Assembly (NCBI GenBank): GCA_039584755.1
Contig: JBDGXD010000002.1
Span: 2,706 to 66,705 of the forward strand
DNA length: 64,000 bases
Reading direction: 5' to 3'
Source: Gemmatimonadota bacterium
GTDB taxonomy: Bacteria > Gemmatimonadota > Gemmatimonadetes > Gemmatimonadales > GWC2-71-9
The notes beneath the pieces were generated by a model. That model searched no databases. It was not told where the DNA came from and was given only the letters and a program-made list of their open reading frames with translations. Positions 9,816 to 50,441 of this stretch are shown one piece after another. Positions within the stretch are counted from its first letter, which is position 1; the number at the start of each line of letters is the position of its first letter. Both the position numbers and the translations under genes were made by a program.

Positions 9816-10379
9816 TCAGCCTGCTAAGTTTATGATTGGCCTTAGGATACGCTCCGTCATGCCCCACACGATGTGGGGCCCGACGACATATGACGGGACT
9901 TCCAGTTCCTCACCCCGCACCCGGATCAGCGACCGGGTGGACGACGCTCGCAGCTCATGTAGTGACACCCACACGTGTAGCGTCACCTCGTCGCTGATCG
10001 CCACCAGGGGACGCCGGCCCACACTGAAGACGAATGGTCGGACGATAATCGCTGGCAGCACTCGAGTCCTGGGGTGCAGGTCATCGAGTTCGCCCAAGAG
10101 CTGCTGCTCGGTCAGCGAGACCCCCGTCTCCTCCCGAGTCTCGCGGCGCGCGGTCCTCAACAGGTCTTGATCTTGGGGCTCGCGGCGTCCGCCCGGTAAC
10201 GCCATCTGACCGGACCAGGGATCGCCTTCCCGCTCGGACCGTTTGATCAGGAGGAGTTCGGGACTGGCCGAAGTCTCTGTGGCTAGCACGACAGCGACCG
10301 CCGCTTCAGTGACACCTTGCTCGGTGATCCGGCATGGTTGATGCCGAATCAGGAAATCGGTGATCGAACTGATCGACAT
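9816..10379 (-). CDS. NUDIX hydrolase (CoA pyrophosphatase-like)
   Basis: Nudix box GGRREPQDQDLLRTARRETREETGV. Confidence 0.8.
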   Translation of the reverse strand: MSISSITDFLIRHQPCRITEQGVTEAAVAVVLATETSASPELLLIKRSEREGDPWSGQMALPGGRREPQDQDLLRTARRETREETGVSLTEQQLLGELDDLHPRTRVLPAIIVRPFVFSVGRRPLVAISDEVTLHVWVSLHELRASSTRSLIRVRGEELEVPSYVVGPHIVWGMTERILRPIINLAG

Positions 10380-26800: not shown

Positions 26801-26920
26801 CGGGCTCACCAGCGAGAAGATGTCAACCAAGACCAAGTGGACGAGGCAGTGGCCGATGCCTTGGACCTATCAGGAGCAACCCGAAAAGTCCTCCGGTCTC
26901 TGGCCCCGCATCGAGGCTGA
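23831..26920 (+). CDS. N6-adenine DNA methyltransferase, gamma-class, Eco57I/PglX/type IIG-like with TaqI_C-like specificity domain
   Basis: 1029 aa. It has the helical N-terminal region with IPYLNGGLFE, YYTP, motif I ILDPAVGSGAFL (about 24.96 kb), motif IV NPPW (25670-25681), and a C-terminal region resembling TaqI-type target-recognition domains. I could not see a PD-(D/E)xK nuclease motif. Confidence 0.85.
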   Translation: MQQRPTITSVLRQLNTTRQLTLLFRLLEYQPDDRPFGDRCQIVARWKGFEVIALDSARPRDEVRELARRLAGTSSRALAVAVDPARELALAAPRFGQPGTTRVLIISLESPSPFALQQLERLRPARSSSALGHALHVADVLSSEEVSDRFFTAFRGIMERMAASLSKNWSMADRRMVTLLALNRILFLYFVQAKHWLDGQPDFLSRLLDDSLSCGADFHRTALEPLFFGTLNRAPQDREQCCKFGEIPYLNGGLFEPHTVERRLGSVHFSNELWRDAFDGVFERFRFCINEYDEVDAIAPDMLGRAFERLMDHAERHETGTYYTPESIVRQVVEAAIETALTAHVSSDVAQSLVRRRALTAKDARACHTVLKRLRILDPAVGSGAFLLGALQSLTEMRSKLAQPRQTGSGGQLRREILQENLMGVDLNPIAVRLAELRLWLAVIADDATDDIGKIMPLPNLDGVVRQGDTLLDPLSAAQMLSPASLNLGGRSALSVSTARRALFDARGEALSTNMRNLRAAETLMAYSVLDHAMENTVQATNDLASVALSNDLFGKRTGLSAAQRQRHRALKRVRQGLLLARKKITEGELPFFAFEVHAPDIMADGGFDMVVGNPPWVRAERLPLNRRRALRKRFSWWRGDHVRGFAHLPDLSVAFLQRCLELTAPDGAVGLLLPSKITSAAYGETARRALVKETSIAYLNRIAEKDAARFKATTYPLAVVVQKKRPTRDHEVKIAFTEDRAVLQRLLDVPGSWIILPSKARNAIDEFLSAGDSLGSISPPMLGVKTGANDVFVGELIDSRGDSAVVKFGNHKTMVEQALLRPALRGRDIRPFMSTSVRVILWTHDGSGRPLRSLPRKASRYLGQKNERLRSRQDYQSGPTWTVFRVAGAISTNRVVWSDIARYPRAVALDEVNASTAVPLNTCYVAAAPDREVALAIAATLNSSWAHALCLVSADEARGGYRRINARLAAQIPIPAGSASREALADLSRRAHQREDVNQDQVDEAVADALDLSGATRKVLRSLAPHRG

Positions 26921-29159
26921 ACAACTCCGCCGCGTTCGCGAACCACTGCGATGGTTGCTGGAGCTGGGCCGCCGCGAGGCCGCGACCGATGTTGAGCCGG
27001 TTCTCCGGAGGGCGGCACTCGGCCTGAGAGATGACCGGTGGAACCCACCGGAGTGGTTGCTTCCACATCAGGTGGACGCAGCACGTCGCGTGACACACAG
27101 CTTGCAGTCATTCGGCTTCGCGCTTCTAGCCGACGCGGTCGGACTCGGCAAAACCTACGTTGCCCTGGCCCTAGCGGCAGCCTACCGCAAGCCAGTCGCC
27201 GTGGTTCCGGCCGCGATTGTCTCACAGTGGCAGCGGGTCAGCGGCGAGGTTGGAATCGATTTAGCCATTCATACTCACGAGGCGATGAGCCGCGGGAGGC
27301 GAGCGCTTGGTGCCGACCTCATCATCACAGATGAAGCTCACCGATTCCGCAATCCCAACACGCGGCGTTACGACGTGCTCGCGCGCACAGTTGGGTGCTC
27401 GCATCTCCTGTTGCTTACTGCGACACCTGTGGTCAACGGCGCTGCCGATCTCGTGAACCTGACACGCCTCGCTCTAGCGGACAATGCATTCGCCATCTTC
27501 GGCTTGCCATCAATGGAGCGAGCTCTAAACGGTGGAGATCACCAACGGATAATGCACGCTTCCGCAGCGGTGATAACCGCGCGCGCGCCCAACAACATCC
27601 CCAGCCTTCACGAATCCCTACCCAAGGTGACAGACGAACCGGTACTGCGCCCGCCACCTGCAGCATACAGGAGAGTCACCGCCCTGCTACGCGCGGTAGA
27701 CAGACTCGAGTTCCCCAGCCTGAGTAACACTGCTGAGGCGGCCCTGCTCCGACTCCACTTGTTGTACAGACTCGCTTCCTCCACGGACGCGTGTCGTGAA
27801 ACAGTACTACGCCACCTGGTTTACATGGATCGGGCGATTGAAGCGGCCGACAGAGGTGAGACTCTGTCACGTGCGAAGGCTAGGCAGGTCTTCTCGTCTG
27901 AAGTTGAGCTAAAGCTAAACCTTCAGCAGTTCTCGCGGCTCGAGAACGTGGCTGACATACAGAAACTGCGAGAAGACCGTCATCGACTCGGACGATTGCT
28001 GCTCCTTCTCACCAGGATGAACGGTACAAGCCCAAAGACCATCGCACTCAAGCGACTCCTGACCAAGCGCACCAATCGCAAGACCATAGTATTCACTACC
28101 GCTCTCGCGACCGCACATATGCTCGCCCGGGCTATGGGCTGGCAACGGGTTGCTGTCGTCGGCTCTGGCCAGGCCTGGATTGCTTCTGGACGTTTGCCAG
28201 TGGAAGAAGCCCTGGCGTTGTTTGCTCCGGTGGCGCGTCGCGCACCCAATCCGCCAGCCTCTTCTGTAGTTCAAGTTCTGTTGGCAACAGACCTAGTCAG
28301 TGAGGGACTCGATCTGCAAGATGCTGATGCAGTTGTACACTACGATCTTCCCTGGACCCCGCTCAGGCTGCAACAGAGAGTTGGCCGTGTTGTGCGGTTG
28401 GGTTCGAGGCACGACGCAGTAGAGGTATCGTGGTTTGCTCCACCGAGTGCCATTGAGTGCAGACTCGCACTGGAAGCAAGAATCGCCGCAAAGGCAAGCT
28501 GCCAGCTCGATCTTCACGTTGCGATCACGTCGAGCGTCGGCAACGCACAAGTAATGAACCGCCTGCTGGAACAACGCGAAGCACTCGGCATGGCGCACAG
28601 CACCACGGCGCCGTCCGATCCTCGGCACGCAGTGGTCAAGGGTCCACAGATCGCGATAGTCGCGATACAATGGGAGTGGGGTAAGGCAAGCGGTACGGAA
28701 CTATTGGCAATGACCGGCGAACCCCCTCGACTGGTTGGCAGCTACGGAGAGATTGACATCCTCATCGGGCTGTTGAGTTCCTCACCCCGCACTCCCTCCC
28801 CTCCACCTGATGCGCTGTTGGCATGCCTCCTCCCCGTGGTGCGATGCCGCCTGGCTACGGCTGATCGGGGATCAACGAATCAAGCAACCCGGCGTCTGGC
28901 ACGCCATTTGGTTAGACGTGCCTACATTGCAGGCAAGAGGCGTGATGCCAAGTCTGTCAACATATGCGACGCCGTACTCGACCGCTTGAGGCACGGTGTC
29001 TCAGTTGGTGGCGAGCGCAGTTTGGAGGAGTTGTCACGCCTCGGAGGACCCCTAGGAGGCCTCAGCGACTGGCTCAAAGATCAACCAGAAAAAAAGGACG
29101 GTTGCCCCAAATTCACCATCGTGGCAGCCATGTTTGGCGACGGCACTGTAGCTGAGTGA
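26820..29159 (+). CDS. SNF2-family (SF2) helicase/translocase
   Basis: Motif I GLGKT (27141-27155), motif II DEAH (27330-27341), motif III LLLTATP, motif VI QQRVGRVVRLGS. About 250 aa at the C-terminus are uncharacterised. The 5' end overlaps the methyltransferase gene by 68-100 nt, depending on the start chosen. Confidence 0.85.
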   Translation: MSTKTKWTRQWPMPWTYQEQPEKSSGLWPRIEAEQLRRVREPLRWLLELGRREAATDVEPVLRRAALGLRDDRWNPPEWLLPHQVDAARRVTHSLQSFGFALLADAVGLGKTYVALALAAAYRKPVAVVPAAIVSQWQRVSGEVGIDLAIHTHEAMSRGRRALGADLIITDEAHRFRNPNTRRYDVLARTVGCSHLLLLTATPVVNGAADLVNLTRLALADNAFAIFGLPSMERALNGGDHQRIMHASAAVITARAPNNIPSLHESLPKVTDEPVLRPPPAAYRRVTALLRAVDRLEFPSLSNTAEAALLRLHLLYRLASSTDACRETVLRHLVYMDRAIEAADRGETLSRAKARQVFSSEVELKLNLQQFSRLENVADIQKLREDRHRLGRLLLLLTRMNGTSPKTIALKRLLTKRTNRKTIVFTTALATAHMLARAMGWQRVAVVGSGQAWIASGRLPVEEALALFAPVARRAPNPPASSVVQVLLATDLVSEGLDLQDADAVVHYDLPWTPLRLQQRVGRVVRLGSRHDAVEVSWFAPPSAIECRLALEARIAAKASCQLDLHVAITSSVGNAQVMNRLLEQREALGMAHSTTAPSDPRHAVVKGPQIAIVAIQWEWGKASGTELLAMTGEPPRLVGSYGEIDILIGLLSSSPRTPSPPPDALLACLLPVVRCRLATADRGSTNQATRRLARHLVRRAYIAGKRRDAKSVNICDAVLDRLRHGVSVGGERSLEELSRLGGPLGGLSDWLKDQPEKKDGCPKFTIVAAMFGDGTVAE

Positions 29160-31346: not shown

Positions 31347-32429
31347 GTGGCGCAAGTGTTTACCCAGCTTCAGGTTGCTTTTTCTGTCCGACATGTGGAT
31401 GGGGTAAGTGTGGCTAGGGGCGGTGGATGGCAGGATGGACAGAAAACAATCTCGTTGATCGATCTCGACATCAAATCGATCATCAACCCGCCTGAGAGCA
31501 CCGGTATGGGTTTTTGGTCGATCAATCCCTACGTGGGATGCGAGCTCGGGTGCAGCTACTGCTATGCCAGGTATGCACATCGTTACGTGATGGAGCGAAC
31601 ACATGATGCTGGGCAGATATCGATCGAGGAGTTCAATCGGTTTAGGGAAACACAGAGTTGGGAAGGTTTCGAACGACAGATATTTGTAAAGCGACGTAGG
31701 TCTGTACTTATAGCACTGGAGCGTGATCTCGCGAAAATTCGCATGAAAAGCACCCGTAGCAGACCACATCCCATAGTCATTGGCACTGCCACGGACCCCT
31801 ACCAACCGGCAGAGCAACGTTTTCATATAACACGCGCCATACTCCGCAGATTGCTGGAGACTCGGGGCTTAACCATCAGCCTCATAACAAAGAGCCCTCG
31901 TGTCTGTCGCGACATCGAGTTGCTGCGCGAGCTTAGCGCTAGACATCGGCTGGTAGTGTACATCTCACTCATCAGCACCGACGTACGGATCATCAAGCAG
32001 TTCGAGGCACGTTCACCGATGCCTCATGCGAGGCTCGCTACGCTGCGGAAGTTTACCGACGTTGGTATCATCGCTGGGCTCAACGTAGCTCCTGTACTAC
32101 CTGGTATTACCGACTCTGCTTTTCAGATAGACTCTCTCATGGCGGCTGCGCGTGAAGCTTCTGCTACTTTTGTGCATCCTGCGGCACTTCAGTTCTTCCC
32201 CACAGTTCGAGATGGCTACTTGCCAATAGTCGAAAAGCACTTTCCCGATCTGGTTCCACGGTATCGTGTCGCTTACCGAGGCAACTGGGATGCCCCAACT
32301 GATTATGTAGCTGCGATCAGACGACGTTTCCAGCGTGCCGCCCGCAAGTACGGGCTGGACACTGATGATCCACTACAAATAGGAGAGCAACGCCAAGCGG
32401 AATGCGATGCACAGTTGAGTCTGCTATGA
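31347..32429 (+). CDS. Radical SAM protein, SplB/COG1533 'DNA repair photolyase'-like
   Basis: SINPYVGCELGCSYCYARY (CxxxCxxC at 31539-31562) plus the downstream TIM-barrel-like pattern typical of this family. The start is uncertain, with in-frame GTGs at 31395 and 31410. Confidence 0.85.
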   Translation: MAQVFTQLQVAFSVRHVDGVSVARGGGWQDGQKTISLIDLDIKSIINPPESTGMGFWSINPYVGCELGCSYCYARYAHRYVMERTHDAGQISIEEFNRFRETQSWEGFERQIFVKRRRSVLIALERDLAKIRMKSTRSRPHPIVIGTATDPYQPAEQRFHITRAILRRLLETRGLTISLITKSPRVCRDIELLRELSARHRLVVYISLISTDVRIIKQFEARSPMPHARLATLRKFTDVGIIAGLNVAPVLPGITDSAFQIDSLMAAAREASATFVHPAALQFFPTVRDGYLPIVEKHFPDLVPRYRVAYRGNWDAPTDYVAAIRRRFQRAARKYGLDTDDPLQIGEQRQAECDAQLSLL

Positions 32430-33886
32430 AACGGGCGGCAAGACTGTCTCGAGGTAAGACGGTACGAAACAGGGTAGCGTCTCACCGACGAACCAACTTA
32501 TCACCTTACCGCAGCGCAGGCGGCAGTACGAATCTCCAAAGCGAGTTGGCAGTTTGCATCTGGTTACCACTTTTCGCACTACGTTGCGAACAACAACGGC
32601 GGTCCGAGTTTACGAATGACCCCACTGCACTCCTCGCCGTGGAGGACGTACGCAGACTCTGGCAGGTATCCCCAACTGCACGCCGTGCAGGTGTCAAGGC
32701 AGGCATGACAGTGAGCCAAGCGGTTGGACTCTGTCCAGCTCTCTTACTCTGGGAACCTGATCCAGTGTACTATGACGTGCAATTTTCCAATTTGCTCCTC
32801 GAGCTGGGCAATGTAAGTCCGGTGATCGAGCCAGGAGAATTGGGTCAGCTGTATGTGGGGGTCGACGGATTGCAAAGACTCTATGGATCACCGGAAGATC
32901 AGATAGGCATGATCCAACACACAGTGACGGTGTGGCAGCGAAAGCTGGTGGCCGGAAGCCGGGAGTCAAGAGCGAATATCGCAAGGGATGGCTGGAAAAC
33001 GCGGAATAGGAAGTGGGAGTTACGCCTTTCTAAGGGTGACAAGGAAACGGAGCAAGCTGCACGTTTTTGCGTTTGCACCTTTGCACGTTTTGGATGGGGC
33101 CGCGGCAAGTTCACTGCCTGGGTAGCTGCCACGCGTGCTAATCCTGGTGAGGCGGTGATCGTCAGCGAGAAGGAGCGGGTGGGATTCCTTGCATCACAAC
33201 CGATTGCAGTATTGCCACTCGAGTCAGACACACACAGACGATTGTGGCGCCTTGGAATTAAAACGTTGAGTGACCTCGCCCAGTTGCCTGAAGCTGCTGT
33301 AGTGTCTCAATTCGGTAGGGTGGGACGCCGTTTGTGGTCGCTCGCTGCTGGCGCGGTGGTCGATCCTGTTGTCGGTAGGAAGACCCCTGAACCAATCATA
33401 GCCAAAGTCGATTTTTCCCATCCGGTAGCAGATCGTACAATGCTCTCGCATTCCCTCGACCGGCTGATCGAGCAAGCATTACGCCATCCCCAACGTGCCG
33501 GTTGGCGCATCCTCAAAGCTCAGGTATGCGCACGACAAGAGAACGGCACCTCCTGGGTGTCCAGCGCCACTCTCAATGATCCTTCGGCGGATCGGCGCCA
33601 CATAGCCGCTCCTCTGAAGATCCGACTCGAGCACGCGCAATTCGTGAAAGCGGTTGAAACCCTAGCAGTGGAATTCACGATGTTCGCCCGCGGCACCGAT
33701 GAGCTACAACTGTTTGCCCGTGACGCAAACAGCTCAGCTCGGGCAGGGCGCCAACGTGCGCTGCGCACTGCAGTACGCGAGATAAAGGCGAGGTACAGAC
33801 GTTCTGGTCTGTATCAGATAGTAGAGGTTCAACCACATTCGCGACTGCTCGAACGCCGTTATGCACTAATAGACTATGATCCATAA
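32426..33886 (+). CDS. imuB: ImuB-like Y-family DNA polymerase homolog (predicted catalytically inactive)
   Basis: Y-family fold pattern, but the N-terminus reads LAVCIWLPLFALRCEQ, with no DxD carboxylates. There is a possible clamp-binding-like ELQLF at 33701-33715. ATG 32426 overlaps the radical-SAM stop (ATGA), and the track start at 32402 is also possible. Confidence 0.8.
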   Translation: MKRAARLSRGKTVRNRVASHRRTNLSPYRSAGGSTNLQSELAVCIWLPLFALRCEQQRRSEFTNDPTALLAVEDVRRLWQVSPTARRAGVKAGMTVSQAVGLCPALLLWEPDPVYYDVQFSNLLLELGNVSPVIEPGELGQLYVGVDGLQRLYGSPEDQIGMIQHTVTVWQRKLVAGSRESRANIARDGWKTRNRKWELRLSKGDKETEQAARFCVCTFARFGWGRGKFTAWVAATRANPGEAVIVSEKERVGFLASQPIAVLPLESDTHRRLWRLGIKTLSDLAQLPEAAVVSQFGRVGRRLWSLAAGAVVDPVVGRKTPEPIIAKVDFSHPVADRTMLSHSLDRLIEQALRHPQRAGWRILKAQVCARQENGTSWVSSATLNDPSADRRHIAAPLKIRLEHAQFVKAVETLAVEFTMFARGTDELQLFARDANSSARAGRQRALRTAVREIKARYRRSGLYQIVEVQPHSRLLERRYALIDYDP

Positions 33887-34193
33887 TCAGCTGCACCCAC
33901 TCAATCTCCCACGGCGTGTACAGGTCCAGTTGAACAATGAGGGGCTGCCATTGGCTGTGGCAAGCGACTCCGTCCTATTACCTGGTTCGACGGTTGAGAA
34001 GCAATTGAGTGACGTGCCCAAAGACGACGTAAAATCGGTAGCCGCCATACTCGAGATCTGGCGTGTCGAGGACGAATGGTGGCGGCAGCCGATATCACGC
34101 CGCTATGTGGAGGTTGTTCTGCAGGGAGGACGTCATGTGGTGTTGTACGAAGATTTGGCTACGGGTGATTGGTTTATACAAAGATGCGATTAG
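33876..34193 (+). CDS. Small Trp-rich protein of the imuB-dnaE2 cassette (DUF6504-like by recollection)
   Basis: 105 aa. The motif ILEIWRVEDEWWRQPISRRYVEVVLQGGRHVVLYEDLATGDWFIQ is present. It overlaps the imuB 3' end by 11 nt and lies 56 nt upstream of dnaE2. Confidence 0.6.
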   Translation: MIHNQLHPLNLPRRVQVQLNNEGLPLAVASDSVLLPGSTVEKQLSDVPKDDVKSVAAILEIWRVEDEWWRQPISRRYVEVVLQGGRHVVLYEDLATGDWFIQRCD

Positions 34194-34249
34194 GAGGCAG
34201 AAGAAAGAGATCGAATTGACTCTACCTCCCTTTCCCTCTCCTCTTCATT

Positions 34250-37200
34250 ATGTACATCGAACTCCACTGCCATTCCGCATTTTCGTTTCTTGACGGTGCC
34301 ACACCACCTGAGCAGCTGGTACTTCAAGCACACAACCTCGGTTATCCAGCCCTTGCGCTCACCGACCATAACGGTTTGTACGGCTCCATGGCTTTTGCCC
34401 AGTCAGCCACACAGATGGGCATTCAACCAATTACTGGCGCAGAAGTCACTCTGTTAGATCGCTCACATGTCACACTGTTAGCAGAAACATCTGAGGGCTA
34501 TGGTAACCTATGTCGCTTGATCACAGAGGCACATCTAGGTCGAGAAGACCGGCGTGACCCACGACTCGACTTCGCATCTTTGGAACGACTCCACGGCGGC
34601 ATTCTCATACTTTCTGGGTGTCGTGCCGGTTTACTACCGACGGTACTGCTCCGCGAGGGGTACACAGCCGCACGGAGATTGGCCGAGCGTTGTCGTCACG
34701 TTTTTGGACAGGATAGTTTTTTCATCGAGCTGCAGCGCAACTCGGTACGCGGTGATCGAGCACTCAACGCAGCGCTTTGCGATATAGCCGACACTACGGG
34801 CATTCAGGTTGTAGCTACTGGCAACGTGCATTACGACCAACCACAGCGGCATCGCCTTCACGATGCGTTAATTGCAATAAGACACCGCAGTACACTCGAT
34901 GCGTCCCACGAGGTGCGTCATTCAAACGCAGAATATTATCTGCGGTCCCCTGAGCACATGGCGACTCTATTTGCGGACCGGCCTGACGCTGTAGCAAATA
35001 CCAGGGCGATCGCTGAGCGATGTGCGTCGTTTGATCTGACGAGAGATCTGGGATACACATTTCCCGACTTCCGTGGAGCAGATCGATCGACTGCCCAACG
35101 GGCCCTTGCAGAACTCGCCGCTGTAAAGCTCGAGGAGATGTATCCACTCGACTCACCGCATCGCAGCGAAGCCGAAAGCCGGGTGAAGCAGGAGCTGAAA
35201 CTGATCGAGCAACATGGCTTGTGTGGTTTTTTCCTTGTTTATCGGGACCTGCTCGAGCTTGCCCATGAAGTTGCAACTGACGTGCGCAAAGGGTCACGTC
35301 GCATCAAAGGAAATTTGCTCCCGGGACGGGGCCGCGGTTCATCCGTTTCTTCAATCATCTGCTATTTCCTGGGTTTGTCACACATCGATCCCATTGCAAA
35401 TAATCTCTTCTTGGGACGATTTCTCAATGAGTCACTTACTTCGATTCCGGACATCGATCTCGATTTCCCCCGTGAGATCCGTGAGGAGCTGATCCGACGG
35501 GTCTATCAACGCTATGGTTCCGAACACGTCGGCCTCGTTTGTGCCTTTCCTACATACCATCTCCGCTCAGCAGTTCGCGAGCTCGGAAAAGCGCTGGATC
35601 TGCCGCAATCGGAATTGGAACAGGTCGTGCGGCTCGCGGGACACGGATCTGCCAAGAGTCTACGTGAGGAGCTGAAGAAGCTGCCCGCCTTCGCCGCCAG
35701 GGTCAATGCAACTCAATGGCGCAACCTGTGTGATTTGGCCGAGGACGTGGCGGAGTTGCCAAGACACATTTCACAGCATGTGGGAGGCATGATCATTTCG
35801 AGTCGCCCACTCGTTGAACTTGTTCCACTCGAACGTGCCGCCATGCCTGATCGCGTTATATGCCAGTGGGATAAGGATTCCTGCGATGATGCCCGTTTTG
35901 TCAAGATCGATTTTCTCGCACTCGGCATGCTTTCGCTCGTTGAAGAGTGCGTTGAACTGATAGCCCGGCGTGATGGGGAGCCCCCTGACCTGAGTCGCAT
36001 CGATTTCCACGACGCCTCGGTGTATGACCAGATCTGCACCGGTGATACTGTAGGAACTTTTCAGATCGAAAGTCGCGCCCAAATCCAGATGGTCCGACGC
36101 ACCCGGCCTCGTAGTCTCGAGGATCTCTGTGTGGAAGTCGCCATTGTCCGGCCTGGCCCAATCGTGGGTGGCGCGGTCAATCCTTTTGTTCGTCGACGCG
36201 AGGAGCAACGGCGCGCGCACTCGCGCAGCAAATCTTACCAACCACCCGTGGATCATCCACTGCTCAAAGAGGTGCTCGCGGAAACCCTAGGAGTCATTGT
36301 TTATCAAGATCAAGTGCTGCAGGTATGTCAGGCACTAGCTGGTTTCACCGCCGGACAAGCAGAAGCGCTGCGCCGGGCAATGAGTCGACGTCGCTCGCGG
36401 GAACTCATGGAAGGCTTTTGGCAGGAGTTCCGCGAGGGCGCTGCGCGACGTGGCGTAGCAGAAGACACTGCCCAGCGTGTCTTTACTCAGGTTGTGGCGT
36501 TTTCCGAGTTCGGCTTCCCTAAATCGCACGCGGCCGCATTTGGCCTTCTGGCGTACCAATCAACCTGGCTACGGCACTATTACCCCGTCCAGTACTATGC
36601 GGCACTCTATAATAATCAACCAATGGGTTTCTATTCGCTGGATGCTCTCGGGCGTGATGCGAATCGGCACGACGTAGAGATTAGGCTGCCCGACATCAAT
36701 CGTAGCGACGTTCACTGTGTGGTTGACGAGAATGCAGTACGAGTGGGATTTGCATTTCTACGCGACTGGGGCCGCGATGTTGCAGAACAAACGGTGCTCG
36801 AACGTGAAGTAAACGGACCTTACCGAAGTCTGGCCGACTTCGTGCGGCGGGCACCATCACGATTGTCCCGTGATGCAATTGAAAATCTGGCTTGGGTGGG
36901 TGGCTGCGATTGTTTTGGCCTGACCAGACGTGAGCTACTCTGGCAAGTTGGACTGTGGCTACCACCTAAGACCGCGCAGCCGGACGGTAAGCGAGTGCGG
37001 CGTCAGTTGGAGCTGCCGTTCAATCACCCATATGAAGATCTCCGGTTCACCGACGTACCGGCCGATCAACGGCTCCTGTCGGAGTACCAGATGTTGGGCT
37101 TTGCCGCGAGTGGTCACCCTTTCACGCTTCTGACTCGCAGCCTTCCACAGGGCATAGTGAGTAGTGATAGGCTCGTGCATATGGAACATGAAGCTGAGAT

Positions 37201-37534
37201 ACAAGTAGCCGGACTGGTCGTCGCACGACAGCGGCCCGTCACCGCGAAGGGTTTCACGTTCATCCTACTGGAGGATCAAGCGGGTATGATGAACGCCATT
37301 GTCAGACCAGATGTATACGAACGAGACCGTGTCACCATCCGCGGTGAACCACTAGTGTGGATTATCGGTAAGCTGGCAAAAGATGACGGCACTGTGAACG
37401 TGATTGCTGAACAAGTGCGGGCTCTGGAAGTGCGATCACAGAATGTACCCAAAATCCTATCTGCATCACGATCACCGAGTGCATTTCTCAAGGATCTACG
37501 GCGCACGGCTCCAGGTTCTAGAAACTGGGGCTAA
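34250..37534 (+). CDS. dnaE2: Error-prone DNA polymerase III alpha-like subunit DnaE2 (ImuC)
   Basis: 1094 aa. N-terminal PHP domain MYIELHCHSAFSFLDGA ... LALTDHNGLYG, then the Pol III alpha core and a C-terminal OB region. The length and the imuB neighbour are typical of DnaE2. Confidence 0.9.
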   Translation: MYIELHCHSAFSFLDGATPPEQLVLQAHNLGYPALALTDHNGLYGSMAFAQSATQMGIQPITGAEVTLLDRSHVTLLAETSEGYGNLCRLITEAHLGREDRRDPRLDFASLERLHGGILILSGCRAGLLPTVLLREGYTAARRLAERCRHVFGQDSFFIELQRNSVRGDRALNAALCDIADTTGIQVVATGNVHYDQPQRHRLHDALIAIRHRSTLDASHEVRHSNAEYYLRSPEHMATLFADRPDAVANTRAIAERCASFDLTRDLGYTFPDFRGADRSTAQRALAELAAVKLEEMYPLDSPHRSEAESRVKQELKLIEQHGLCGFFLVYRDLLELAHEVATDVRKGSRRIKGNLLPGRGRGSSVSSIICYFLGLSHIDPIANNLFLGRFLNESLTSIPDIDLDFPREIREELIRRVYQRYGSEHVGLVCAFPTYHLRSAVRELGKALDLPQSELEQVVRLAGHGSAKSLREELKKLPAFAARVNATQWRNLCDLAEDVAELPRHISQHVGGMIISSRPLVELVPLERAAMPDRVICQWDKDSCDDARFVKIDFLALGMLSLVEECVELIARRDGEPPDLSRIDFHDASVYDQICTGDTVGTFQIESRAQIQMVRRTRPRSLEDLCVEVAIVRPGPIVGGAVNPFVRRREEQRRAHSRSKSYQPPVDHPLLKEVLAETLGVIVYQDQVLQVCQALAGFTAGQAEALRRAMSRRRSRELMEGFWQEFREGAARRGVAEDTAQRVFTQVVAFSEFGFPKSHAAAFGLLAYQSTWLRHYYPVQYYAALYNNQPMGFYSLDALGRDANRHDVEIRLPDINRSDVHCVVDENAVRVGFAFLRDWGRDVAEQTVLEREVNGPYRSLADFVRRAPSRLSRDAIENLAWVGGCDCFGLTRRELLWQVGLWLPPKTAQPDGKRVRRQLELPFNHPYEDLRFTDVPADQRLLSEYQMLGFAASGHPFTLLTRSLPQGIVSSDRLVHMEHEAEIQVAGLVVARQRPVTAKGFTFILLEDQAGMMNAIVRPDVYERDRVTIRGEPLVWIIGKLAKDDGTVNVIAEQVRALEVRSQNVPKILSASRSPSAFLKDLRRTAPGSRNWG

Positions 37535-42371: not shown

Positions 42372-42953
42372 GTGTCGAACACGCGAGGAAAAGCTAGAGA
42401 GACAATCCTTGAGAGTGCCGAGGCCTTGGTGAAGGAACATGGAGCGGCAACTGTCACGGTCGAAGCCGTGGCCAAGGCCGCTGGCACTGCAAAGGGCCTA
42501 ATCCATTATCATTTCAAGACTAAGCAAGGTCTACTGAGCGCCGTCACAGATCGCCTCACCGAGTCCAGAACCAAGAATTGGGCTGATGCGCTCAAACCAA
42601 GTGCACAGATATCCCCAGCCGAGCGGTCCTGGCAGCTACTGACCAATGAGTCAGCCACAGGTGTGACGCTTGCGTGGCAAACACTACTCTGTTTGGAGGC
42701 AGAGTCTTCTGACCACCGAGCCAAGGCACACGTTAGTGAGTTCAGCAGCTCGCTGGGCGCGGCGTTAGCGCGGCTGTTCAAGGAGGATATGGGGCTGACT
42801 CCGACCGTGCCGGTCGGGGAGATTGGCTGGTTAATGACGGCTGTAATAGACGGTGTGGGATTGCAGTTGTTGTCTGGCGCCGGTGGTGAGGAATTGCAGG
42901 GGGCTTACGCTGCTTCCTGGCTGGGTATGCTGTCGCTCACGACACCTGCATGA
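42372..42953 (+). CDS. TetR-family transcriptional regulator
   Basis: N-terminal HTH ILESAEALVKEHGAATVTVEAVAKAAGTAKGLIHYHFKTKQGLL. Confidence 0.85.
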   Translation: MSNTRGKARETILESAEALVKEHGAATVTVEAVAKAAGTAKGLIHYHFKTKQGLLSAVTDRLTESRTKNWADALKPSAQISPAERSWQLLTNESATGVTLAWQTLLCLEAESSDHRAKAHVSEFSSSLGAALARLFKEDMGLTPTVPVGEIGWLMTAVIDGVGLQLLSGAGGEELQGAYAASWLGMLSLTTPA

Positions 42954-42957
42954 GGGC

Positions 42958-44412
42958 CTAGCGACGGCGCCGCCGTCGTCGTCGTCGCGCTCGACCGCTC
43001 GCCTTGTTGGCAGGAAGCAACTGCATTCGGTGGTGCAGCTCCTCCACTGATTCAGCCCGGACTATCTCACGTCGCCTCCGCTGGACACTGAGGAGCAAAG
43101 GGCGGTCGAGAGAGGGGAGGTCCCGCTTGCGCAAGCGGCGAGCCTGACCTTCTCGCAACCTTAACACAGCAACCGGGTTCACACCCTCAAGTTCATAGAC
43201 GATTGGGATTCTGTCACCCAGAACGGATACCGAGGTTGGCAACGCGTCCAACGGTTTGCGAAGGTCGGGGTCCAGCATCTGGTCCACGTCGAGACGCAGA
43301 TCCACCTGCAGGAAGTCGCTCCAGCTTTCCACCCACCCCAGTTGGCCTCTGAGCAGCTCGATCGCGTGTACCGGATTGGCCGCCTCGATCATGCAGCCAG
43401 AGCGACGCCAGTACTCGTCCAGGCGCGCAACTGCCCGTGATATGTCAGCTTGCGATCGATGTGCGGTGACACCGTCTGTAAGTGCCCGGGCCAATACGTC
43501 CCGCGCTGCGTCAACGAATTCCTCGGGGATCTCGTCGGCAAGCCACGTGCGTTCGTTGCTCAACTCGAATCCGAAGTACGCCGTTCGTCGCGTTGCAACC
43601 AAGCCTGAGCGCCGATTGTCAACTTGAAACTCGATTATGGGGTCTCCCCGCCTGGCGTACCGCTGGATCATGCGCAGTGGGATGTTGGTACCCTCGATTG
43701 CGGCTCGCGGCACTCCAAAGCGGTTGGCGAAGAATGACAATGCTCCGGCGATTGCCGAATAGGGATTGCACACCGATGAGCGAGACACCCGAACTCTCTC
43801 GCCGGAAACCGACTCTTCACCGATGACCAACTCGAATGGCATTATTCGAGCTATCAGATCTCTGAATCGCGTCGCGACGTCATTCTTGACGCGGGGCAGT
43901 TTCTCTCCAAGTGGCCGTTCCAAGGTTCGCATCACCGATGCCGTACCCAACGCAACGTCCTCGATTGCCTTGACCAGCACGCCTCGCTCATCGGCCCAGC
44001 GGTCGATCTCGTCGGTGAACAGATGGCGCGGAAGGCCGTAGACACGACCCACGTAGCCACATTCGTTGACTGCGGCGGCGAATATGTTGTACGCGGTCAG
44101 ATGGTCGCTGCCATGAACGACCAGCCCACGAAGATCGGATTCCTCCCGAGTGATCCTGTGTAGCGAATCGACGTTGGCTGCAACCGCTAGGTACGGGATC
44201 AAATCGTCGTCGGCGTGTGCCAGCAGTTCACCCCAAGGGCGGTCCACCGGCATGGCCTCCACATCTCTCCCATAGTCAGTCAAGCGGCCGGCGTGCACCA
44301 GGCCGCGGTCGCTCAGCAGCCTGACGGACGCGGAGTAAGCGCGGCGGTCGAGCGGTACTGGAAGGTCCAGCGCGGCAAAGTCAACACCGAGGGCCGCGGC
44401 CGTCAGGGCCAC
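42958..44412 (-). CDS. DEAH-box helicase C-terminal fragment (HA2/OB-like region, HrpA/HrpB-like) ending in a poly-Arg tail
   Basis: The frame is open upstream to about 44490 (... VPTPPDFQLAGDTERVALTAAALGVDFAALDLPVP ...), resembling the post-RecA2 PEI ... region of DEAH helicases. It ends in GRA followed by nine Arg. Confidence 0.65.
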   Translation of the reverse strand: MALTAAALGVDFAALDLPVPLDRRAYSASVRLLSDRGLVHAGRLTDYGRDVEAMPVDRPWGELLAHADDDLIPYLAVAANVDSLHRITREESDLRGLVVHGSDHLTAYNIFAAAVNECGYVGRVYGLPRHLFTDEIDRWADERGVLVKAIEDVALGTASVMRTLERPLGEKLPRVKNDVATRFRDLIARIMPFELVIGEESVSGERVRVSRSSVCNPYSAIAGALSFFANRFGVPRAAIEGTNIPLRMIQRYARRGDPIIEFQVDNRRSGLVATRRTAYFGFELSNERTWLADEIPEEFVDAARDVLARALTDGVTAHRSQADISRAVARLDEYWRRSGCMIEAANPVHAIELLRGQLGWVESWSDFLQVDLRLDVDQMLDPDLRKPLDALPTSVSVLGDRIPIVYELEGVNPVAVLRLREGQARRLRKRDLPSLDRPLLLSVQRRRREIVRAESVEELHHRMQLLPANKASGRARRRRRRRRR

Positions 44413-44486
44413 ACGTTCAGTATCACCAGCCAGTTGGAAATCCGGTGGTGTCGGGACCAGAGCTGCGAAATCGATATCACGATCCG

Positions 44487-45428
44487 TTAATTGCGCCCGC
44501 GATCGATGACGATGTTGTAGCAGGCGTCGTAGATAACGACAGTGTCGAGGCCCTGGACATTCAGAGCAGATTGACCTGCCTGGGTCATGCTCAGAACGAA
44601 CGGCTTCTGTGCAGTCCCATCGAGAAAAGGCTTGATCACTCGTATCGGCTCACCACCGTGGTAGAACGCGGTGTTGAGGTGTTCCCAACGCCATCCAAGC
44701 TCACCAGCAACCTGCTCGACCTCCGCGCGTGTTGGCAGGAAGACGGCTACACCACGATGCTCCTTCACCACTCTGCGAATGAAGTGATCGTCGATGAAAG
44801 CCGATGGCGACTCGCGACTGTATTCAACTCGGGCCGCCATGTCCGGATCGAACACAGAAGTCTCGAGCACTTCGGTTGATTCCAAATAGTCAGCGTAGAA
44901 CGCGGGATCTACGGTGGCCGAAAGCCAGATGAAACGGCAGCCGACTCGCTTGCCCAACGCGAGACATAGCTCCAGTTCGGCTGAGGTCTGATGTATCTCG
45001 TCCACCACCAAGGTGTCATGTGAGTCGATTAGATCATCCTGAAACCAACGGCGGGCAATGCCAGTGGTTACGATGACCACATTCCACGTGGGTGTTTCCG
45101 GCATCGCCTCCCGTTCGCGATTCACCACCCCGACCTTGAGCTGGGTACCCAGGATTTCTTCTGAGATCGAGCGGATCGCCAAGGTCTTACCTGTTCCAGT
45201 ACCTGCCACAATGCCGAAGCCCCGGCCGCTGCTCGCCAGCTGTGCCACCTCTTCTCCGTGTTCACGGTCCAGCACGGTTGAGATATTCAGATGCATCGCG
45301 AACTCGATGGTCTCGCATGCCGCTCTGGTGGGAGCGATCACGATGACGCGACCCGTGGACGGCTCGGCTCTACGATAGGCCTCCGGATCCGGCGGTAGGT
45401 AGTGATCTCGTACGTGATGCCGCGACAT
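44487..45428 (-). CDS. DEAH-box helicase N-terminal fragment (RecA1 plus part of RecA2)
   Basis: Motif I AGTGTGKT, motif II DEIH, motif III SAT, and the start of RecA2 (FLPTRAEVE ... SMTQAGQSALNVQGLDTVVIYD). It stops at TAA before any motif VI (QRxGRxGR). Confidence 0.7.
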   Translation of the reverse strand: MSRHHVRDHYLPPDPEAYRRAEPSTGRVIVIAPTRAACETIEFAMHLNISTVLDREHGEEVAQLASSGRGFGIVAGTGTGKTLAIRSISEEILGTQLKVGVVNREREAMPETPTWNVVIVTTGIARRWFQDDLIDSHDTLVVDEIHQTSAELELCLALGKRVGCRFIWLSATVDPAFYADYLESTEVLETSVFDPDMAARVEYSRESPSAFIDDHFIRRVVKEHRGVAVFLPTRAEVEQVAGELGWRWEHLNTAFYHGGEPIRVIKPFLDGTAQKPFVLSMTQAGQSALNVQGLDTVVIYDACYNIVIDRGRN

Positions 45429-45512: not shown

Positions 45513-46817
45513 GTGACAGACGAAAACAAGCCTCACTCCGAAAAACCCAAGACCGAAAGCAAGGGCATCAAGCTCCACACCCAGATTCTCATCGGACTGC
45601 TCCTGGGCGCATTGCTCGGGCCAGTCATGGGGAATGCGGCGCTCTGGATCAAGCCCATCGGCGACGCGTTCATCAATCTCCTGATCATGATTGTCGTGCC
45701 GCTCGTGATGGCCTCACTCATAGTAGGTACCGCCAGTCTCGGTAACCTCAGGAAGCTTGGCCGAATCGGGCTGAAGACGGTGGGCTATTACCTGGTCGCC
45801 ACTGCAATCGCCGTCTCATTCGGATTGGCTGCCGGCAAGGCATTCAATCCGGGCGCCGGAATGGATGAGGATGTGAAGGCTCGCATGATGACGGACTATG
45901 CCGGCGTTACCGAACAGCAACTGGAACGAGTAGCCGAGAAGCCGAGCCTGTCTGAGTTCCTGGTCAACATTGTGCCCCGCAATCCATTCAGGGCGATGGT
46001 CGAGACGAACTTCCTGCAGATCATCTTCTTTGCCCTGCTGTTCGGCATATCACTCACTATCCTGCCAGAGGAGCGTCGCAAACCGGTCGTCAACCTTCTC
46101 CAGTCCATAAACGACGCGATGATAGTGCTGGTGAAGATGGTCATGAGGATCGCACCGCTTGGTGTGTTCGCCCTCATTGCTGCCGTCGCGGCACAATTCG
46201 GCTACGGTGTTCTGCTGACCCTGCTGAAATACGTAGTCGTCACGATCGGGACGATGATCGCCTTTGTCGCGATCGTATACCCGATCTCGCTCCGTCTGTC
46301 GGGCATGTCGCCGGTTTACTTCTTCAAGAAGTACTACGAGGTCGCGCTGTTTGCTTTCTCGACTTCGTCCAGCAACGCCACTCTACCGATCAACATTCAG
46401 GTCTCGAAAGAGGACCTGGGTGTATCGAATGACGTGGCCTCGTTTGTGCTGCCACTGGGCGCCACCATCAATATGAATGGGACTGCCATCTACCAGGGAG
46501 TGAGTACCATCTTCATCGCTCAGGTGTTCGGCATGACGCTGGGCATACAGGATCTCATCATCGTCGTTTTGACCGCGACGCTGGCGTCAATCGGTGCTGC
46601 GGGCGTGCCGGGCATTGGCATGGTAACGCTCACAATCGTGCTGCAACAGATCGGAATCCCCGTAGAGGGTATTGCCCTAGTGGTGGGAGTCGAACGGATA
46701 CTGGACATGACTCGTACTGCTGTGAACGTAACCGGTGACACTACCTGTGCTGTATGGGTGGCAAAGACGGAAGGGGAGTTGAACACACCGCAGGAGTCGG
46801 AGGGGGCGGCAGCCTAG
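45513..46817 (+). CDS. Dicarboxylate/amino acid:cation symporter (canonical DAACS, GltP/GltT-like)
   Basis: 434 aa with the canonical motifs SSSNATLP (HP1), NMNGTAIYQG (NMDGT-like) and DMTRTAVNVTGD. Confidence 0.9.
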   Translation: MTDENKPHSEKPKTESKGIKLHTQILIGLLLGALLGPVMGNAALWIKPIGDAFINLLIMIVVPLVMASLIVGTASLGNLRKLGRIGLKTVGYYLVATAIAVSFGLAAGKAFNPGAGMDEDVKARMMTDYAGVTEQQLERVAEKPSLSEFLVNIVPRNPFRAMVETNFLQIIFFALLFGISLTILPEERRKPVVNLLQSINDAMIVLVKMVMRIAPLGVFALIAAVAAQFGYGVLLTLLKYVVVTIGTMIAFVAIVYPISLRLSGMSPVYFFKKYYEVALFAFSTSSSNATLPINIQVSKEDLGVSNDVASFVLPLGATINMNGTAIYQGVSTIFIAQVFGMTLGIQDLIIVVLTATLASIGAAGVPGIGMVTLTIVLQQIGIPVEGIALVVGVERILDMTRTAVNVTGDTTCAVWVAKTEGELNTPQESEGAAA

Positions 46818-47926
46818 TCCCCCATACTGATTCCCAGTTCCCTCGCCGTCCTGATCTGGTCGCAGTCGAGAGGCACGACGTGCGGGTTGCCGACGGCCTC
46901 TTTGAGAGGCACAGTTTTCACGTTGGGCGGATCGAAAGCGACCATATGGTTCACATCCCCCTGCTCCACAGCCCGTACAGCAGCAGCGCCGAATCTCAAT
47001 GCCAGCAGACGGTCGAAGGTGGTAGGGCGACCGCCCCTTTGAAGATGGCCCAGGGTCACAGTGCGTGTTTCCTTGCCGGTATGCATCTGGATGTACTCGG
47101 CGACGAGATTGGAGACACCGCCAAGGCGCTCGCTCGCACCCGCCACCGCTCCCGCTTTCAGAACCGCTGAACCGCCTTTGTGTGTCGCCCCCTCCGCCAC
47201 AATCACCACGCTGAACTTGCGGCCCAGCGCCTCGCGTTGGCGAACCTTGTCACACACCTTGTCAAGGTCAAATGGGATCTCGGGTATCAGTATCGCATGC
47301 GCGCTGCCCGCCAGACCCGCGTGGAGCGCTATCCACCCCGCGTAGCGGCCCATCACCTCCACGACCATCACTCGTTCGTGACTCTCGGCCGTGGACTCGA
47401 TCTTGTCCATGGCATCGGTAGCAGTGTTGACTGCGGTATCGAAGCCAAAAGTGGTCCACGTACCACCGACGTCGTTATCGATCGTCTTCGGCACACCAAC
47501 CATGGGCAGGCCTTTTTCCGCCAGGTCAGCGGCGATACCGAGCGTACCGTCACCGCCAACAGCGACTACCGCCTTTATCCCCAATAATCTCGCCTTGTCG
47601 ATCAATTCGTCGGAGCGGTCTGCTTCGACCCACGTGCCATCAGATTGTGGTACCGGCCAACGGAACGGGTTGCCGCGATTCGTCGTACCGAGCATAGTGC
47701 CGCCAACATTCGTGAGGCCTCTCACGTCTGCTCGATCGAGTGATACCACTGGCGAATCTCCCAACAAGCCACCGAACCCGCGTCTGATGCCCAGTACCTC
47801 CCAGCCGCGATTCAGCCCGCCAAGAACCACGGCACGAATCACCGCATTCAAGCCGGGTGCATCGCCACCACCCGTCGATACGGCGATACACATCGAATCG
47901 GGGTAAGCCCCATGTGGCCTATTCAT
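46814..47926 (-). CDS. pfkA: 6-phosphofructokinase (phosphoryl donor ATP vs PPi unresolved)
   Basis: TGGGDAPGLNAVIR, GGDGT, PKTIDNDV, MGR. It has Gly in GGDGT (ATP-type) but Lys in PKTIDND (seen in PPi-type and actinobacterial enzymes). Confidence 0.9.
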   Translation of the reverse strand: MNRPHGAYPDSMCIAVSTGGGDAPGLNAVIRAVVLGGLNRGWEVLGIRRGFGGLLGDSPVVSLDRADVRGLTNVGGTMLGTTNRGNPFRWPVPQSDGTWVEADRSDELIDKARLLGIKAVVAVGGDGTLGIAADLAEKGLPMVGVPKTIDNDVGGTWTTFGFDTAVNTATDAMDKIESTAESHERVMVVEVMGRYAGWIALHAGLAGSAHAILIPEIPFDLDKVCDKVRQREALGRKFSVVIVAEGATHKGGSAVLKAGAVAGASERLGGVSNLVAEYIQMHTGKETRTVTLGHLQRGGRPTTFDRLLALRFGAAAVRAVEQGDVNHMVAFDPPNVKTVPLKEAVGNPHVVPLDCDQIRTARELGISMGD

Positions 47927-47957
47927 TTGGCTGGCTCGATCATGAGCTAGTCCCCAG

Positions 47958-48176
47958 CTAACGGATCAGTCCCATCACTTCTCCAGGCCCGGCATGCCGG
48001 CCGAGCTTCTTCTTGGAGAACATCAGGCTACCATCCACCGTAACCTCGAACACGCCCCCCGAGCCCTCGATTAACTCGATCTCAGCCTCGGGATATGCAT
48101 CTTTGATTTCAGCCGCCAGACTGGTGGCTCTCGGTTCATAGTTTCAGACGACGCAGTACTCGATACTCAACTTCAT
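47958..48176 (-). CDS. SelW/Rdx-family selenoprotein (72 aa) with in-frame UGA = Sec in a CxxU motif
   Basis: Absent from the ORF track. Minus strand: GGAGGA-tcc-ATG (48176) MKLSIEYCVV, TGA (48146-48144), NYEPRATSLAAEIKDAYPEAEIELIEGSGGVFEVTVDGSLMFSKKKLGRHAGPGEVMGLIR, TAG (47960-47958). It matches the Rdx pattern (YCxxC/U ... RA ... G.FEV.V.G.L.FSK). Confidence 0.85.
48111..48129 (-). promoter_or_regulatory. Candidate bacterial SECIS hairpin downstream of the UGA
   Basis: In the mRNA, 14 nt after the UGA: AGCCACCA-GUC-UGGCGGCU. This gives 7 Watson-Crick pairs plus one A/C mismatch, with G-U in the apical loop about 23-24 nt after the UGA. Confidence 0.5.
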
Positions 48177-48311
48177 GGATCCTCCGGAGCTTTCCAATGG
48201 ACAGTGTGCGGGCAGTAAGGTACGGGTCAGCCCAGTCGGAGCCAAGGGGTCCAGGTCGTCAGCGCCTTGCAGTTTTTCGGTTGCCCGACAACATTGCGGC
48301 CGCAGCCTCTT

Positions 48312-50441
48312 ATGTCTGACACAGAAAAAAGCGTGAGCAAACCCAAGACAATCTCCCGCTCCGGATTGATCCGATTCGCCAGCGAGCTTGGCGGGTTGGG
48401 GTTCTTCTTAGTTGCCGTGGTCGGTCTCTTGGAAGATCCCACGCTCCGTGGTGGCGCCTTCACACTCCAGACGATCGTAATCGGAGCAGCTGCCGCGGCG
48501 AGCAGACGATTCGCGGTCTCCCTGCCAGGTAGAGGAATAGCGTCGTTCGCGACCGGCGTAGCGGTGGCTGCGATCTTGCTCAGGGGCTGGCAATTCGCCG
48601 TGTTCGTCATCTGTGTGGGGATGTTGTTCGGTGAAATCGTCATGCGGCGGCAACGGATTGCCGATGCCCTGTCCATCGCGGGCCACCTGGGACTGGCTAC
48701 AGGCTTCATCGGGCTTCTCTATGGGCTCATTGGCGGTGTTACGGGAGCGGGAGCCGTCGAGATCGCCAACTTGGTGCCTTTGGTGTTCATTGTGGTAGTC
48801 CTCCCGGCGTTTGTGAACGCCACGTTCTATTCGGAACTGGCTCTATCGGGGGGAGTGGCCTGGGTCGACGCCAAGCTGACCCTTCGATGGGAAGCTGTGA
48901 TGGCACTCGCAGGTAGCGGACTGGCTATAGCGTGGGTGGGCCTACTCACTGCAGAAGCTCCGACCCTGCCTGCGCTGGGAGTTGCGGCAGCCTTCATGGC
49001 CGTAGCGCTGTTGATCTACTGGGTGATCCAATCCGGTGTACGGGCTGACGAATTGCGATTGGTTCAGCGGCTGGCGGGGACGGTGGCTGCGGAGGTAAGC
49101 ATCCAACAAAGTTTTGAGCGGATCCAGCAGCTGACCACGCGACTTCTGCCCTGGGAAAACATGGGATTCGCACGGTACCAAGCGGGCACCAACGAAATGG
49201 TGATCCTCGCCGACACGGCGGGTTCGAGTGAGCTGCGGTTCCCGGCCGGAACCGGCCTTATCGGTGACGCTGTGCGGCACGGTGAACCGGTGGTGGCGAG
49301 TGCGCTCACGTATGGTGATATGGTCTTGCCCGAGGGAGAGACTCCCGGCTCAGAGATACTGGTGCCCTTGTACCATGGTGGAGGCCTGGCCGGTGCTTGG
49401 AGCATACGGCACAGCGATCCAACGATGTACCGGCGTGATGACGCGTTCTTGCTCAATCTCCTCGCTCCCCAACTCGCATTGTCACTGAATCTGAGCACAA
49501 CGGTGGCACCGTTGGTTCAGTCGTCCGATAGAGCGGCACGCTGCGTTGAGCAACTGGCTGCGACGGGCGATACGATTCGGGAGGCTACCCAGCAGGCTGC
49601 CAAGAACGCGGCAAGGGCAGAGTCCGAGGCCCGAAAGGCTGTCGAGCGAGCCGAAGACGGCGTCAAAGCGCTGGAGCGTCTGGTTGACGGCATCGGTGGC
49701 ACCCGCCAGGCCGGTACGGACACCGAACAGGCCACACGGTCGGTAGCGAAAACTGCGGTCGAGCTACACGAGGCCAGTGGCAACACGGTCGAGCAGCTGA
49801 GGCAATTGGGTTCCACGATCGAGATTGGCGTGACAGAGGTCGACCACCTGAGGGACGCAGCCCAGGATGTCGCCGAGTTTTCCGACACCATCGCAAGCAT
49901 AGCCAACCAGACCAACCTGTTGGCTCTGAACGCCACCATCGAGGCGGCCCGGACCGGTCTACAGGGGAAGGGCTTTGCCGTGGTAGCAGATGAGGTGCGG
50001 AAGCTGGCCGAGCAGAGCGCGGACGCTGCGAGAAAGATGGGAGGTAGCGCCCAGGACACTCGACGAGCCATCGACAAGGCAGCACGGGTACTGGAAGACC
50101 TTGGCGGACAGCTGGCCCAACTGACCGAAGGCTCCAACGAGTGGGCCGCTGCTCTGACCCACATCCTTGATACCGCGGAGGTTACTCGGCGTACTGGTGA
50201 GCGGATGGTGGCGCTACCACAGAGCAACCTCGAGATCGCCGAAGAGACCAGCCTCATAATGGCGGAAGCCCGTGCGGCCGCCGAGCGCTCCGCTGGCGAG
50301 GCAGCGCATCTTGTTGTGGCCACGCAGGCTCAACTTCAAGCGCTTCAGGAGCTTACGCGCAGCGGCGCAGAGTTGTCACAGATCACGAGCCAGTTGTCTG
50401 AGGCTACCCGATTCCTTCACGCGGACCAAGGAGACAACTGA
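48312..50441 (+). CDS. Methyl-accepting chemotaxis protein with polytopic N-terminal membrane domain and GAF domain
   Basis: About 8 hydrophobic helices, then a GAF-like region (... [14 protein letters not shown] ... [17 protein letters not shown] ...), then the MCP signalling domain ([43 protein letters not shown]). The start was moved from 48267 to ATG 48312. Confidence 0.85.

Follow-up and report, generated by a model that had tools for sequence, protein, structure and literature searches.

Does the seemingly empty interval between a phosphofructokinase gene (pfk) and a divergent chemoreceptor gene of a Gemmatimonadota bacterium encode a selenoprotein, and how would the ribosome deal with the in-frame UGA that such a gene contains? 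The interval lies in a stretch of 64,000 nucleotides that we analyzed as a whole and refer to as the window. The original prediction had placed in it, on the minus strand, a hidden gene of the SelW/Rdx family carrying selenocysteine (Sec). Our results lead to the same reading: with a probability that we put at roughly 92%, judged from sequence, the locus is an unannotated, Sec-decoded SelW-like (Rdx) gene of a Gemmatimonadota with a Cys8-x-x-Sec11 motif. This reading is supported by profile matches, a TGA in 79 of 79 related loci, homologues with Cys at the same column, and covariation in a SECIS-type hairpin. The features of the locus are:

47958-48176, minus strand: predicted coding sequence of a SelW-like/Rdx-family selenoprotein, 72 codons, C8-V-V-U11 motif, TAG at 47958-47960
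48144-48146, minus strand: in-frame TGA, predicted Sec11; TGA in 79/79 related loci, TGT/TGC in the Cys-form orthologues
48153-48155, minus strand: TGC encoding Cys8, the first CxxU residue; a Cys column in all relatives except a Verrucomicrobial UxxU variant
48180-48185, minus strand: Shine-Dalgarno-like GGAGGA, followed by TCC (3 nt) and the ATG at 48174-48176
48111-48129, minus strand: bacterial SECIS-type hairpin AGCCaCCA-GUC-UGGcGGCU, whose stem of 8 positions contains one A.C mismatch and whose GUC loop occupies 48119-48121
46814-47926, minus strand: pfk (phosphofructokinase), Pfam PFK E=1.5e-101
48267-50441, plus strand: GAF-MCP chemoreceptor gene, divergent, the upstream neighbour of the SelW-like gene

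The gap between pfk and the MCP reading frame measures 340 nt, the size given in the original prediction. Translation of its minus strand from 48176 to 47958 yields MKLSIEYCVV*NYEPRATSLAAEIKDAYPEAEIELIEGSGGVFEVTVDGSLMFSKKKLGRHAGPGEVMGLIR*, which begins MKLSIEYCVV-UGA-NYEPR, ends LIR-TAG and contains a single in-frame TGA, at codon 11, so that the proposed 72-codon frame with one TGA and a terminal TAG is present at these coordinates; the proposed GGAGGA-N3-ATG start can likewise be read directly from the sequence. That ORF callers would overlook such a gene also proved correct, as the minus strand of the gap holds no standard ORF of at least 40 aa and the gene calls on the deposited contig JBDHBO010000001.1 leave the gap empty. 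This contig (129,347 nt, from the Gemmatimonadota MAG GCA_039592585.1) is on record at NCBI and JGI and matches the window base for base from 47900 to 48300, TGA included, an identity that rules out an artefact of the window sequence.

Elsewhere, the window and the deposit differ. At 44489/44490 (within 42867-45428, minus strand), the window is missing 91 nt relative to the deposited contig (L081 13438-13528), and because this loss falls inside an 853-aa DEAD/Helicase_C gene, it frameshifts the gene into two ORFs, 44487-45428 and 42958-44412. Ten substitutions, at 6628, 37309, 37330, 38086, 43212, 45103, 47813, 59201, 61179 and 61503, separate the two sequences further. These differences, none of which touches the SelW-like finding, may reflect strain variation, another version of the assembly or an edit.

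Two further gene groups of the window stand on the plus strand. At 23831-29159, a 1029-aa Eco57I/MmeI-type N6-methyltransferase fusion is followed by a 779-aa SNF2/ResIII helicase, a pair that looks like a restriction-modification or defence type. The genes at 31347-37534 resemble an SOS mutagenesis cassette and encode, one after another, a radical-SAM protein, an ImuB-like protein of the impB/mucB family and a second, DnaE2-like DNA polymerase III alpha of 1094 aa.

An Rdx-family product

For the profile scans, U11 was written as Cys. The translation matched the Pfam Rdx profile (PF10262) at 71.3 bits (cutoff 22.6; E=7.7e-20), with residues 3-72 aligned to profile positions 2-73 of 74, and it exceeded the curated cutoffs of TIGR02174 CXXU_selWTH (64 bits, cutoff 34.2) and of the NCBIfam equivalog NF041051, "SelT/SelW/SelH family (seleno)protein" (102.8 bits, cutoff 88). 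With these full-length matches, the family named in the original prediction is confirmed, and in all three profiles the two halves of the frame align as a single Rdx domain. Taken alone, the part downstream of the TGA reaches 49.7 bits against 71.3 bits for the whole, and the N-terminal 10 residues thus add to the Rdx match.

A sequence search of the PDB returned 2fa8, 2ljk, 3dex, 2ojl, 2oka, 2obk and 2npb as relatives, and the CVVU motif aligns to CTQC of Atu0228, to CEPC of MIEN1 and to CVVC of the Cys orthologues. Atu0228 from Agrobacterium tumefaciens (2fa8) shares fold and length with the window protein and matches it with E=7e-11 over residues 2-71, differing in that it carries CxxC in place of CVVU. 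Indeed, Atu0228, 2obk, 2oka, 2ojl, 3dex and 2p0g are all CxxC forms, for which neither UGA recoding nor a SECIS is needed, whereas the window gene encodes CxxU. MIEN1 (2ljk) is another Rdx fold with CxxC at the homologous position. Mammalian SelW (2npb) has the Rdx fold and a CxxU at that position, with weak sequence similarity to the window protein (E=0.007).

As a proxy for the window protein, we used the AF2 model of P0001, its closest Cys-form orthologue, which is 69% identical to it (pLDDT 93.4). The model displays the order beta1(2-8)-alpha1(14-27)-beta2-beta3-beta4-alpha2, with CxxC placed between beta1 and alpha1, and Foldseek aligned it with TM 0.81-0.87 to 2fa8, 2obk, 2oka, 2ojl, 3dex and 2p0g, followed by MIEN1 and mouse SelW (2npb). 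By proxy of this model, the predicted fold of the SelW-like product is the thioredoxin-like Rdx fold.

Conservation on both sides of the UGA

We collected 80 related loci, nearly all from Gemmatimonadota MAGs, in a scan of one genome per species, queried solely with the peptide that follows the TGA. Every locus in which the Sec column could be tested has a TGA there (79/79; 58-79% protein identity). The TGA thus occupies the column of the second redox residue of CxxC/CxxU, as had been proposed, and homologues carry Cys at this column (P0001-P0006, Atu0228 and MIEN1). Before the TGA, which the query did not cover, the relatives share the pattern M/V-x-[IV]-x-I-[EQ]-Y-C-x-x, and in 80/80 a start codon (ATG in 65, GTG in 15) stands exactly 10 codons upstream of it. 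A Shine-Dalgarno-like GGAG, GAGG or AGGA precedes the start in 55 of the 80.

The entropies of the three codon positions are 0.75/0.55/1.10 across the 10 upstream codons and 0.74/0.49/1.26 across the 57 downstream codons; in the 5' leader they are about 1.8 everywhere. The N-terminal decapeptide is under the same-frame coding selection, from which it follows that the UGA must be read. A reassigned code (code 4/25) is ruled out as the way in which this happens: TGA is the commonest terminator in the window and ends 24 of its 40 genes. A TGA-split frame is in itself a frequent sight, as the high GC content of the genome produces hundreds of others in the window.

A hairpin behind the UGA and the proposed decoding of codon 11

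Bacterial SECIS (bSECIS) elements have been modeled as a 4-16 bp stem with a 3-9 nt loop, a G as the first or second loop base (N1-G-[G|U]-N-N2), a UGA-to-loop distance of 16-37 nt and an MFE of at most -7.5 kcal/mol (PMC13188914). The hairpin at 48129-48111 lies within all of these limits: its stem begins 14 nt and its loop 22 nt past the UGA, with an MFE of -9.4 kcal/mol. Like the bSECIS consensus, it sits just 3' of the UGA within the coding sequence, and a G-U opens its small apical loop. Unlike the consensus, its primary sequence is unrelated, and its loop is very small, with 3 nt, or 5 nt should the closing A-U/G-U pair open. The archetype of such bacterial elements is that of E. coli fdhF. 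Eukaryotic SelW, by contrast, relies on a SECIS in the 3'-UTR together with SBP2/eEFSec; the element described here is part of the ORF, 14 nt past the UGA, as in bacteria.

Folded on its own, the hairpin has no significant stability advantage over shuffled sequences (z = -1.8 with 25 nt and -0.8 with 60 nt), and we therefore take support from covariation across species, computed on a gap-free alignment of the 80 sequences. Standard pairs fill 92% of the stem cells, compared with 15-51% in registers slid by 1-3 nt; because the relatives are phylogenetically non-independent, shuffle statistics inflate the significance. Five of the eight stem pairs (30-48, 33-45, 34-44, 35-43 and 36-42) change on both sides. 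The basal pair 30-48 is GC in 40 sequences (41 before merging identical rows), AU in 29, CG in 6, UA in 1, GU in 1 and unpaired in 2, and it connects two third codon positions, one in an Arg codon and the other in an Ala codon. Because these sites are synonymous, selection on the protein cannot explain their covariation. Further compensated pairs turn C-G into U-A (L053, L080) or C-G into G-C (L002, L071, L076, L074), and the internal A.C mismatch, found in about half of the sequences, is elsewhere replaced by G-C, U-A or A-U. All 80 sequences open the loop with G, 76/80 continue with U, and at least 7 of the 8 stem pairs form in 78/80, a conservation that is partly driven by the protein, as the codons of the conserved peptide RA[TA][SG]LAAE run through the stem. 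The check for a bacterial SECIS thus came out positive, with covariation. Rfam gave no SECIS or credible RNA family, either in the whole window at the gathering threshold or in a permissive scan of 47900-48300; we dismissed weak glmS and snoRNA matches as noise.

In line with a role for the hairpin in Sec decoding are the orthologues that carry Cys. Among the database homologues, P0001-P0006 are true Cys forms (CVVC), and where we read the DNA (P0001, P0003, P0004 and P0006) the Sec codon is TGT or TGC (orthologous loci L084, L087, L088 and L089). Other database entries, P0007, P0016 and P0018, show W at the Sec column because the caller took TGA for Trp. The Cys-form orthologues share the MCP-flanked syntenic position. 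At the P0001 locus, for example, the order is OmpA-TSP3, GAF-MCP, the divergent Rdx gene with codon TGT, and a DEAD-type helicase. Of the 8 pairs, the four Cys-form hairpins retain 6 (loop CGC), 7 (CUC), 8 (GUC) and 4 (GUU). In 3/4 loci, either the hairpin or the G of its loop has thus decayed, the G being lost outright from one locus (CUC) and shifted in another (CGC). This pattern in four loci, one of which keeps a perfect hairpin, is consistent with relaxed selection once Sec had been replaced.

The perfect hairpin (8/8 pairs, GUC loop) belongs to L088:564-800 (Logan SRR21285592), a Cys form with TGT. It suggests either a very recent switch from Sec to Cys or that part of the element is kept by the peptide sequence alone.

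These observations point at the following order of events. Translation would start at the ATG at 48176, and on reaching the UGA at 48146-48144 the ribosome would not terminate. Rather, the hairpin at 48129-48111 with its GUC loop would act as a bacterial SECIS that recruits SelB.GTP.Sec-tRNA(Sec) while the UGA occupies the A site. Sec would be inserted as residue 11, and translation would run on to the TAG at 47960-47958. The 8-kDa thioredoxin-fold CxxU product would then, by homology, be a putative redox protein that cycles between the thiol/selenol and the selenenylsulfide. SelB-dependent insertion, redox activity and an operon with pfk are the parts of this scheme that we infer.

The genes and the tRNA that this route would use did not turn up in the DNA that was searched. 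ARAGORN scans of the window and of 60 related loci gave no tRNA-Sec, and Pfam found no selA, selB or selD among the 40 main ORFs of the window; neither did the flanks of about 8-9 kb that we added at each window end contain these genes. For this genome, the sel-gene search covered about 81 kb of the 129-kb contig, and the absence applies to that part; the sel genes are thus not linked to the SelW-like locus. A tblastn search with approximate E. coli SelA/SelB/SelD queries had no match in the 1.35 Mb of related loci. The searchable literature on Sec use in Gemmatimonadetes/Gemmatimonadota/Gemmatimonas, including the supplements of a 5,200-genome survey, yielded no relevant statement.

The lack of Sec machinery in these 81 kb would suit an explanation in which the UGA is read through but yields a residue other than Sec, such as Cys or Trp by a near-cognate or suppressor route, with the hairpin serving as a generic stimulator of read-through. 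Cys-form orthologues, which function with Cys at this position, would also be compatible with it. The hairpin, however, fits the specific bSECIS consensus in its loop G-U, spacing and size. The family is moreover among the most abundant documented Sec families, with CxxU at the same column (PMC1088965, PMC2398784). General suppression of TGA would be costly where TGA is the commonest terminator, and if Cys were the residue inserted, the fixation of TGA in 79/79 genomes would be hard to explain against a simple TGC or TGT. We consider non-Sec decoding very improbable.

Less probable again is that the UGA simply terminates translation, leaving a 10-residue peptide or a truncated Rdx fragment begun downstream. 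Public pipelines do call truncated products of this kind in relatives (P0008-P0010, P0013, P0025 and others), P0013 being a 57-aa "Rdx family protein" from Gemmatimonadota that lacks its N-terminus. In the window, however, the first in-frame start past the TGA does not come until the 31st codon after it, a GTG, and the resulting 31-residue fragment would be without beta1, alpha1 and beta2. Nor is a downstream start conserved, since its first occurrence varies among the relatives from codon 9 to codon 57. Termination also leaves the same-frame coding constraint on the upstream 10 codons, the start codon and the Cys without a cause, and the profile match needs both halves (71.3 versus 49.7 bits).

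The least credible account, to which we give almost no weight, is that of a pseudogene in which a nonsense mutation turned TGC or TGT of a CxxC Rdx gene into TGA, or of a sequencing or assembly error with the same outcome: a single base change does separate TGA from TGC/TGT and the gene is unannotated in the deposit, but the same TGA recurs in 79 independent genomes at 58-79% protein identity, purifying selection acts on both sides of it, the downstream hairpin covaries, and the base is identical in the deposited contig and on record at JGI as well, so that the pseudogene is effectively refuted by TGA conservation, covariation and codon constraint.

Sec insertion at codon 11 is thus the reading that we retain. 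From the sequence evidence, we strongly infer that this organism decodes Sec.

Linkage to pfk and place among SelW-like proteins

The stop codon of the SelW-like gene lies 31 nt upstream of the pfk start on the same strand, and we found no terminator-like site between the two genes. In 74/80 related loci, pfk is again immediately downstream on the same strand. Other neighbours occur less often than pfk, namely OmpA in 51 loci, DUF4015 in 36, DEAD helicase in 33 and MCP in 20. The exceptions to the linkage are L004 and L070, in which a helicase is directly downstream (as it is in the Cys-form locus L085), L039 with an SDF transporter, L029, whose contig ends, and L074 and L080, which are without any of the window neighbours. 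Given the shared strand, the 31-nt spacing, the lack of a terminator and the recurrence of pfk, the SelW-like gene and pfk are probably co-transcribed, as far as gene arrangement can tell. A more speculative proposal, which we regard as unlikely, is that functional coupling has conserved a SelW-like/pfk operon across Gemmatimonadota, for example with the Rdx protein as a redox switch or repair partner of PFK.

At its 3' end, pfk overlaps by 4 nt with a convergent gene for a sodium:dicarboxylate symporter (SDF) at 45513-46817 (plus strand). This is the third SDF paralogue of the window; the other two stand in tandem at 14422-16904 (plus strand).

Bacterial SelW-like selenoproteins have been described in surveys of prokaryotic selenoproteomes (PMC1088965, PMC1794560, PMC2398784) and are listed in a review (PMC13188914). 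They occur in sequenced Deltaproteobacteria, Clostridia and Actinobacteria (PMC1794560), and their function has been called unclear (PMC1088965). The gene described here resembles them in encoding a small single domain with CxxU after beta1, in its in-frame UGA, in the hairpin with a loop G and in having Cys homologues. It differs from them in its Gemmatimonadota host, in a Sec form that is apparently fixed in the 79 sampled genomes, and in the pfk gene that lies downstream in 74/80. Knowledge of bacterial SelW-like CxxU selenoproteins goes back to 2004-05, and family, motif and SECIS type are textbook; that an NCBI equivalog model exists and that the gene passes it means that this kind of gene is already known. 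The modest novelty lies in the lineage, in a Sec form that appears fixed across the sampled Gemmatimonadales and in the conserved position directly upstream of pfk.

A separate observation concerns a Verrucomicrobial relative. In L080:393-464 (Verrucomicrobiales MAG JABSSR010000074.1), the codons TAT TGA GGA ATG TGA spell Y-U-G-M-U, with TGA at both redox positions and hence a putative UxxU diselenide motif. This form recurs near-identically in five JGI metagenome assemblies (L090-L094, around 9940-10160), L080 is a diverged allele, and the proteins P0011, P0012 and P0025 belong with it. Both of its UGAs fall within 16-37 nt of the loop of the same hairpin, at 31 and 22 nt. As a 2026 review gives SelW-like proteins only as CxxU with one Sec (PMC13188914), the Verrucomicrobial UxxU form may be an undescribed SelW-like variant.

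For the organism and its lineage, these analyses add a real gene that is absent from the deposited record and whose relatives are widely mis-called, through N-terminal truncation or a W at the TGA. Our understanding of Sec decoding itself is unchanged by a SelW-like gene. The conservation of the UGA implies that Sec decoding is widespread in Gemmatimonadales, within a phylum of soil and sediment. If the coupling to PFK were true, selenium or redox status would be tied to glycolytic flux, and a bacterial SelW-like protein would have its first physiological partner. The phylum-wide placement of the gene directly before pfk offers a testable lead on the function of the family.
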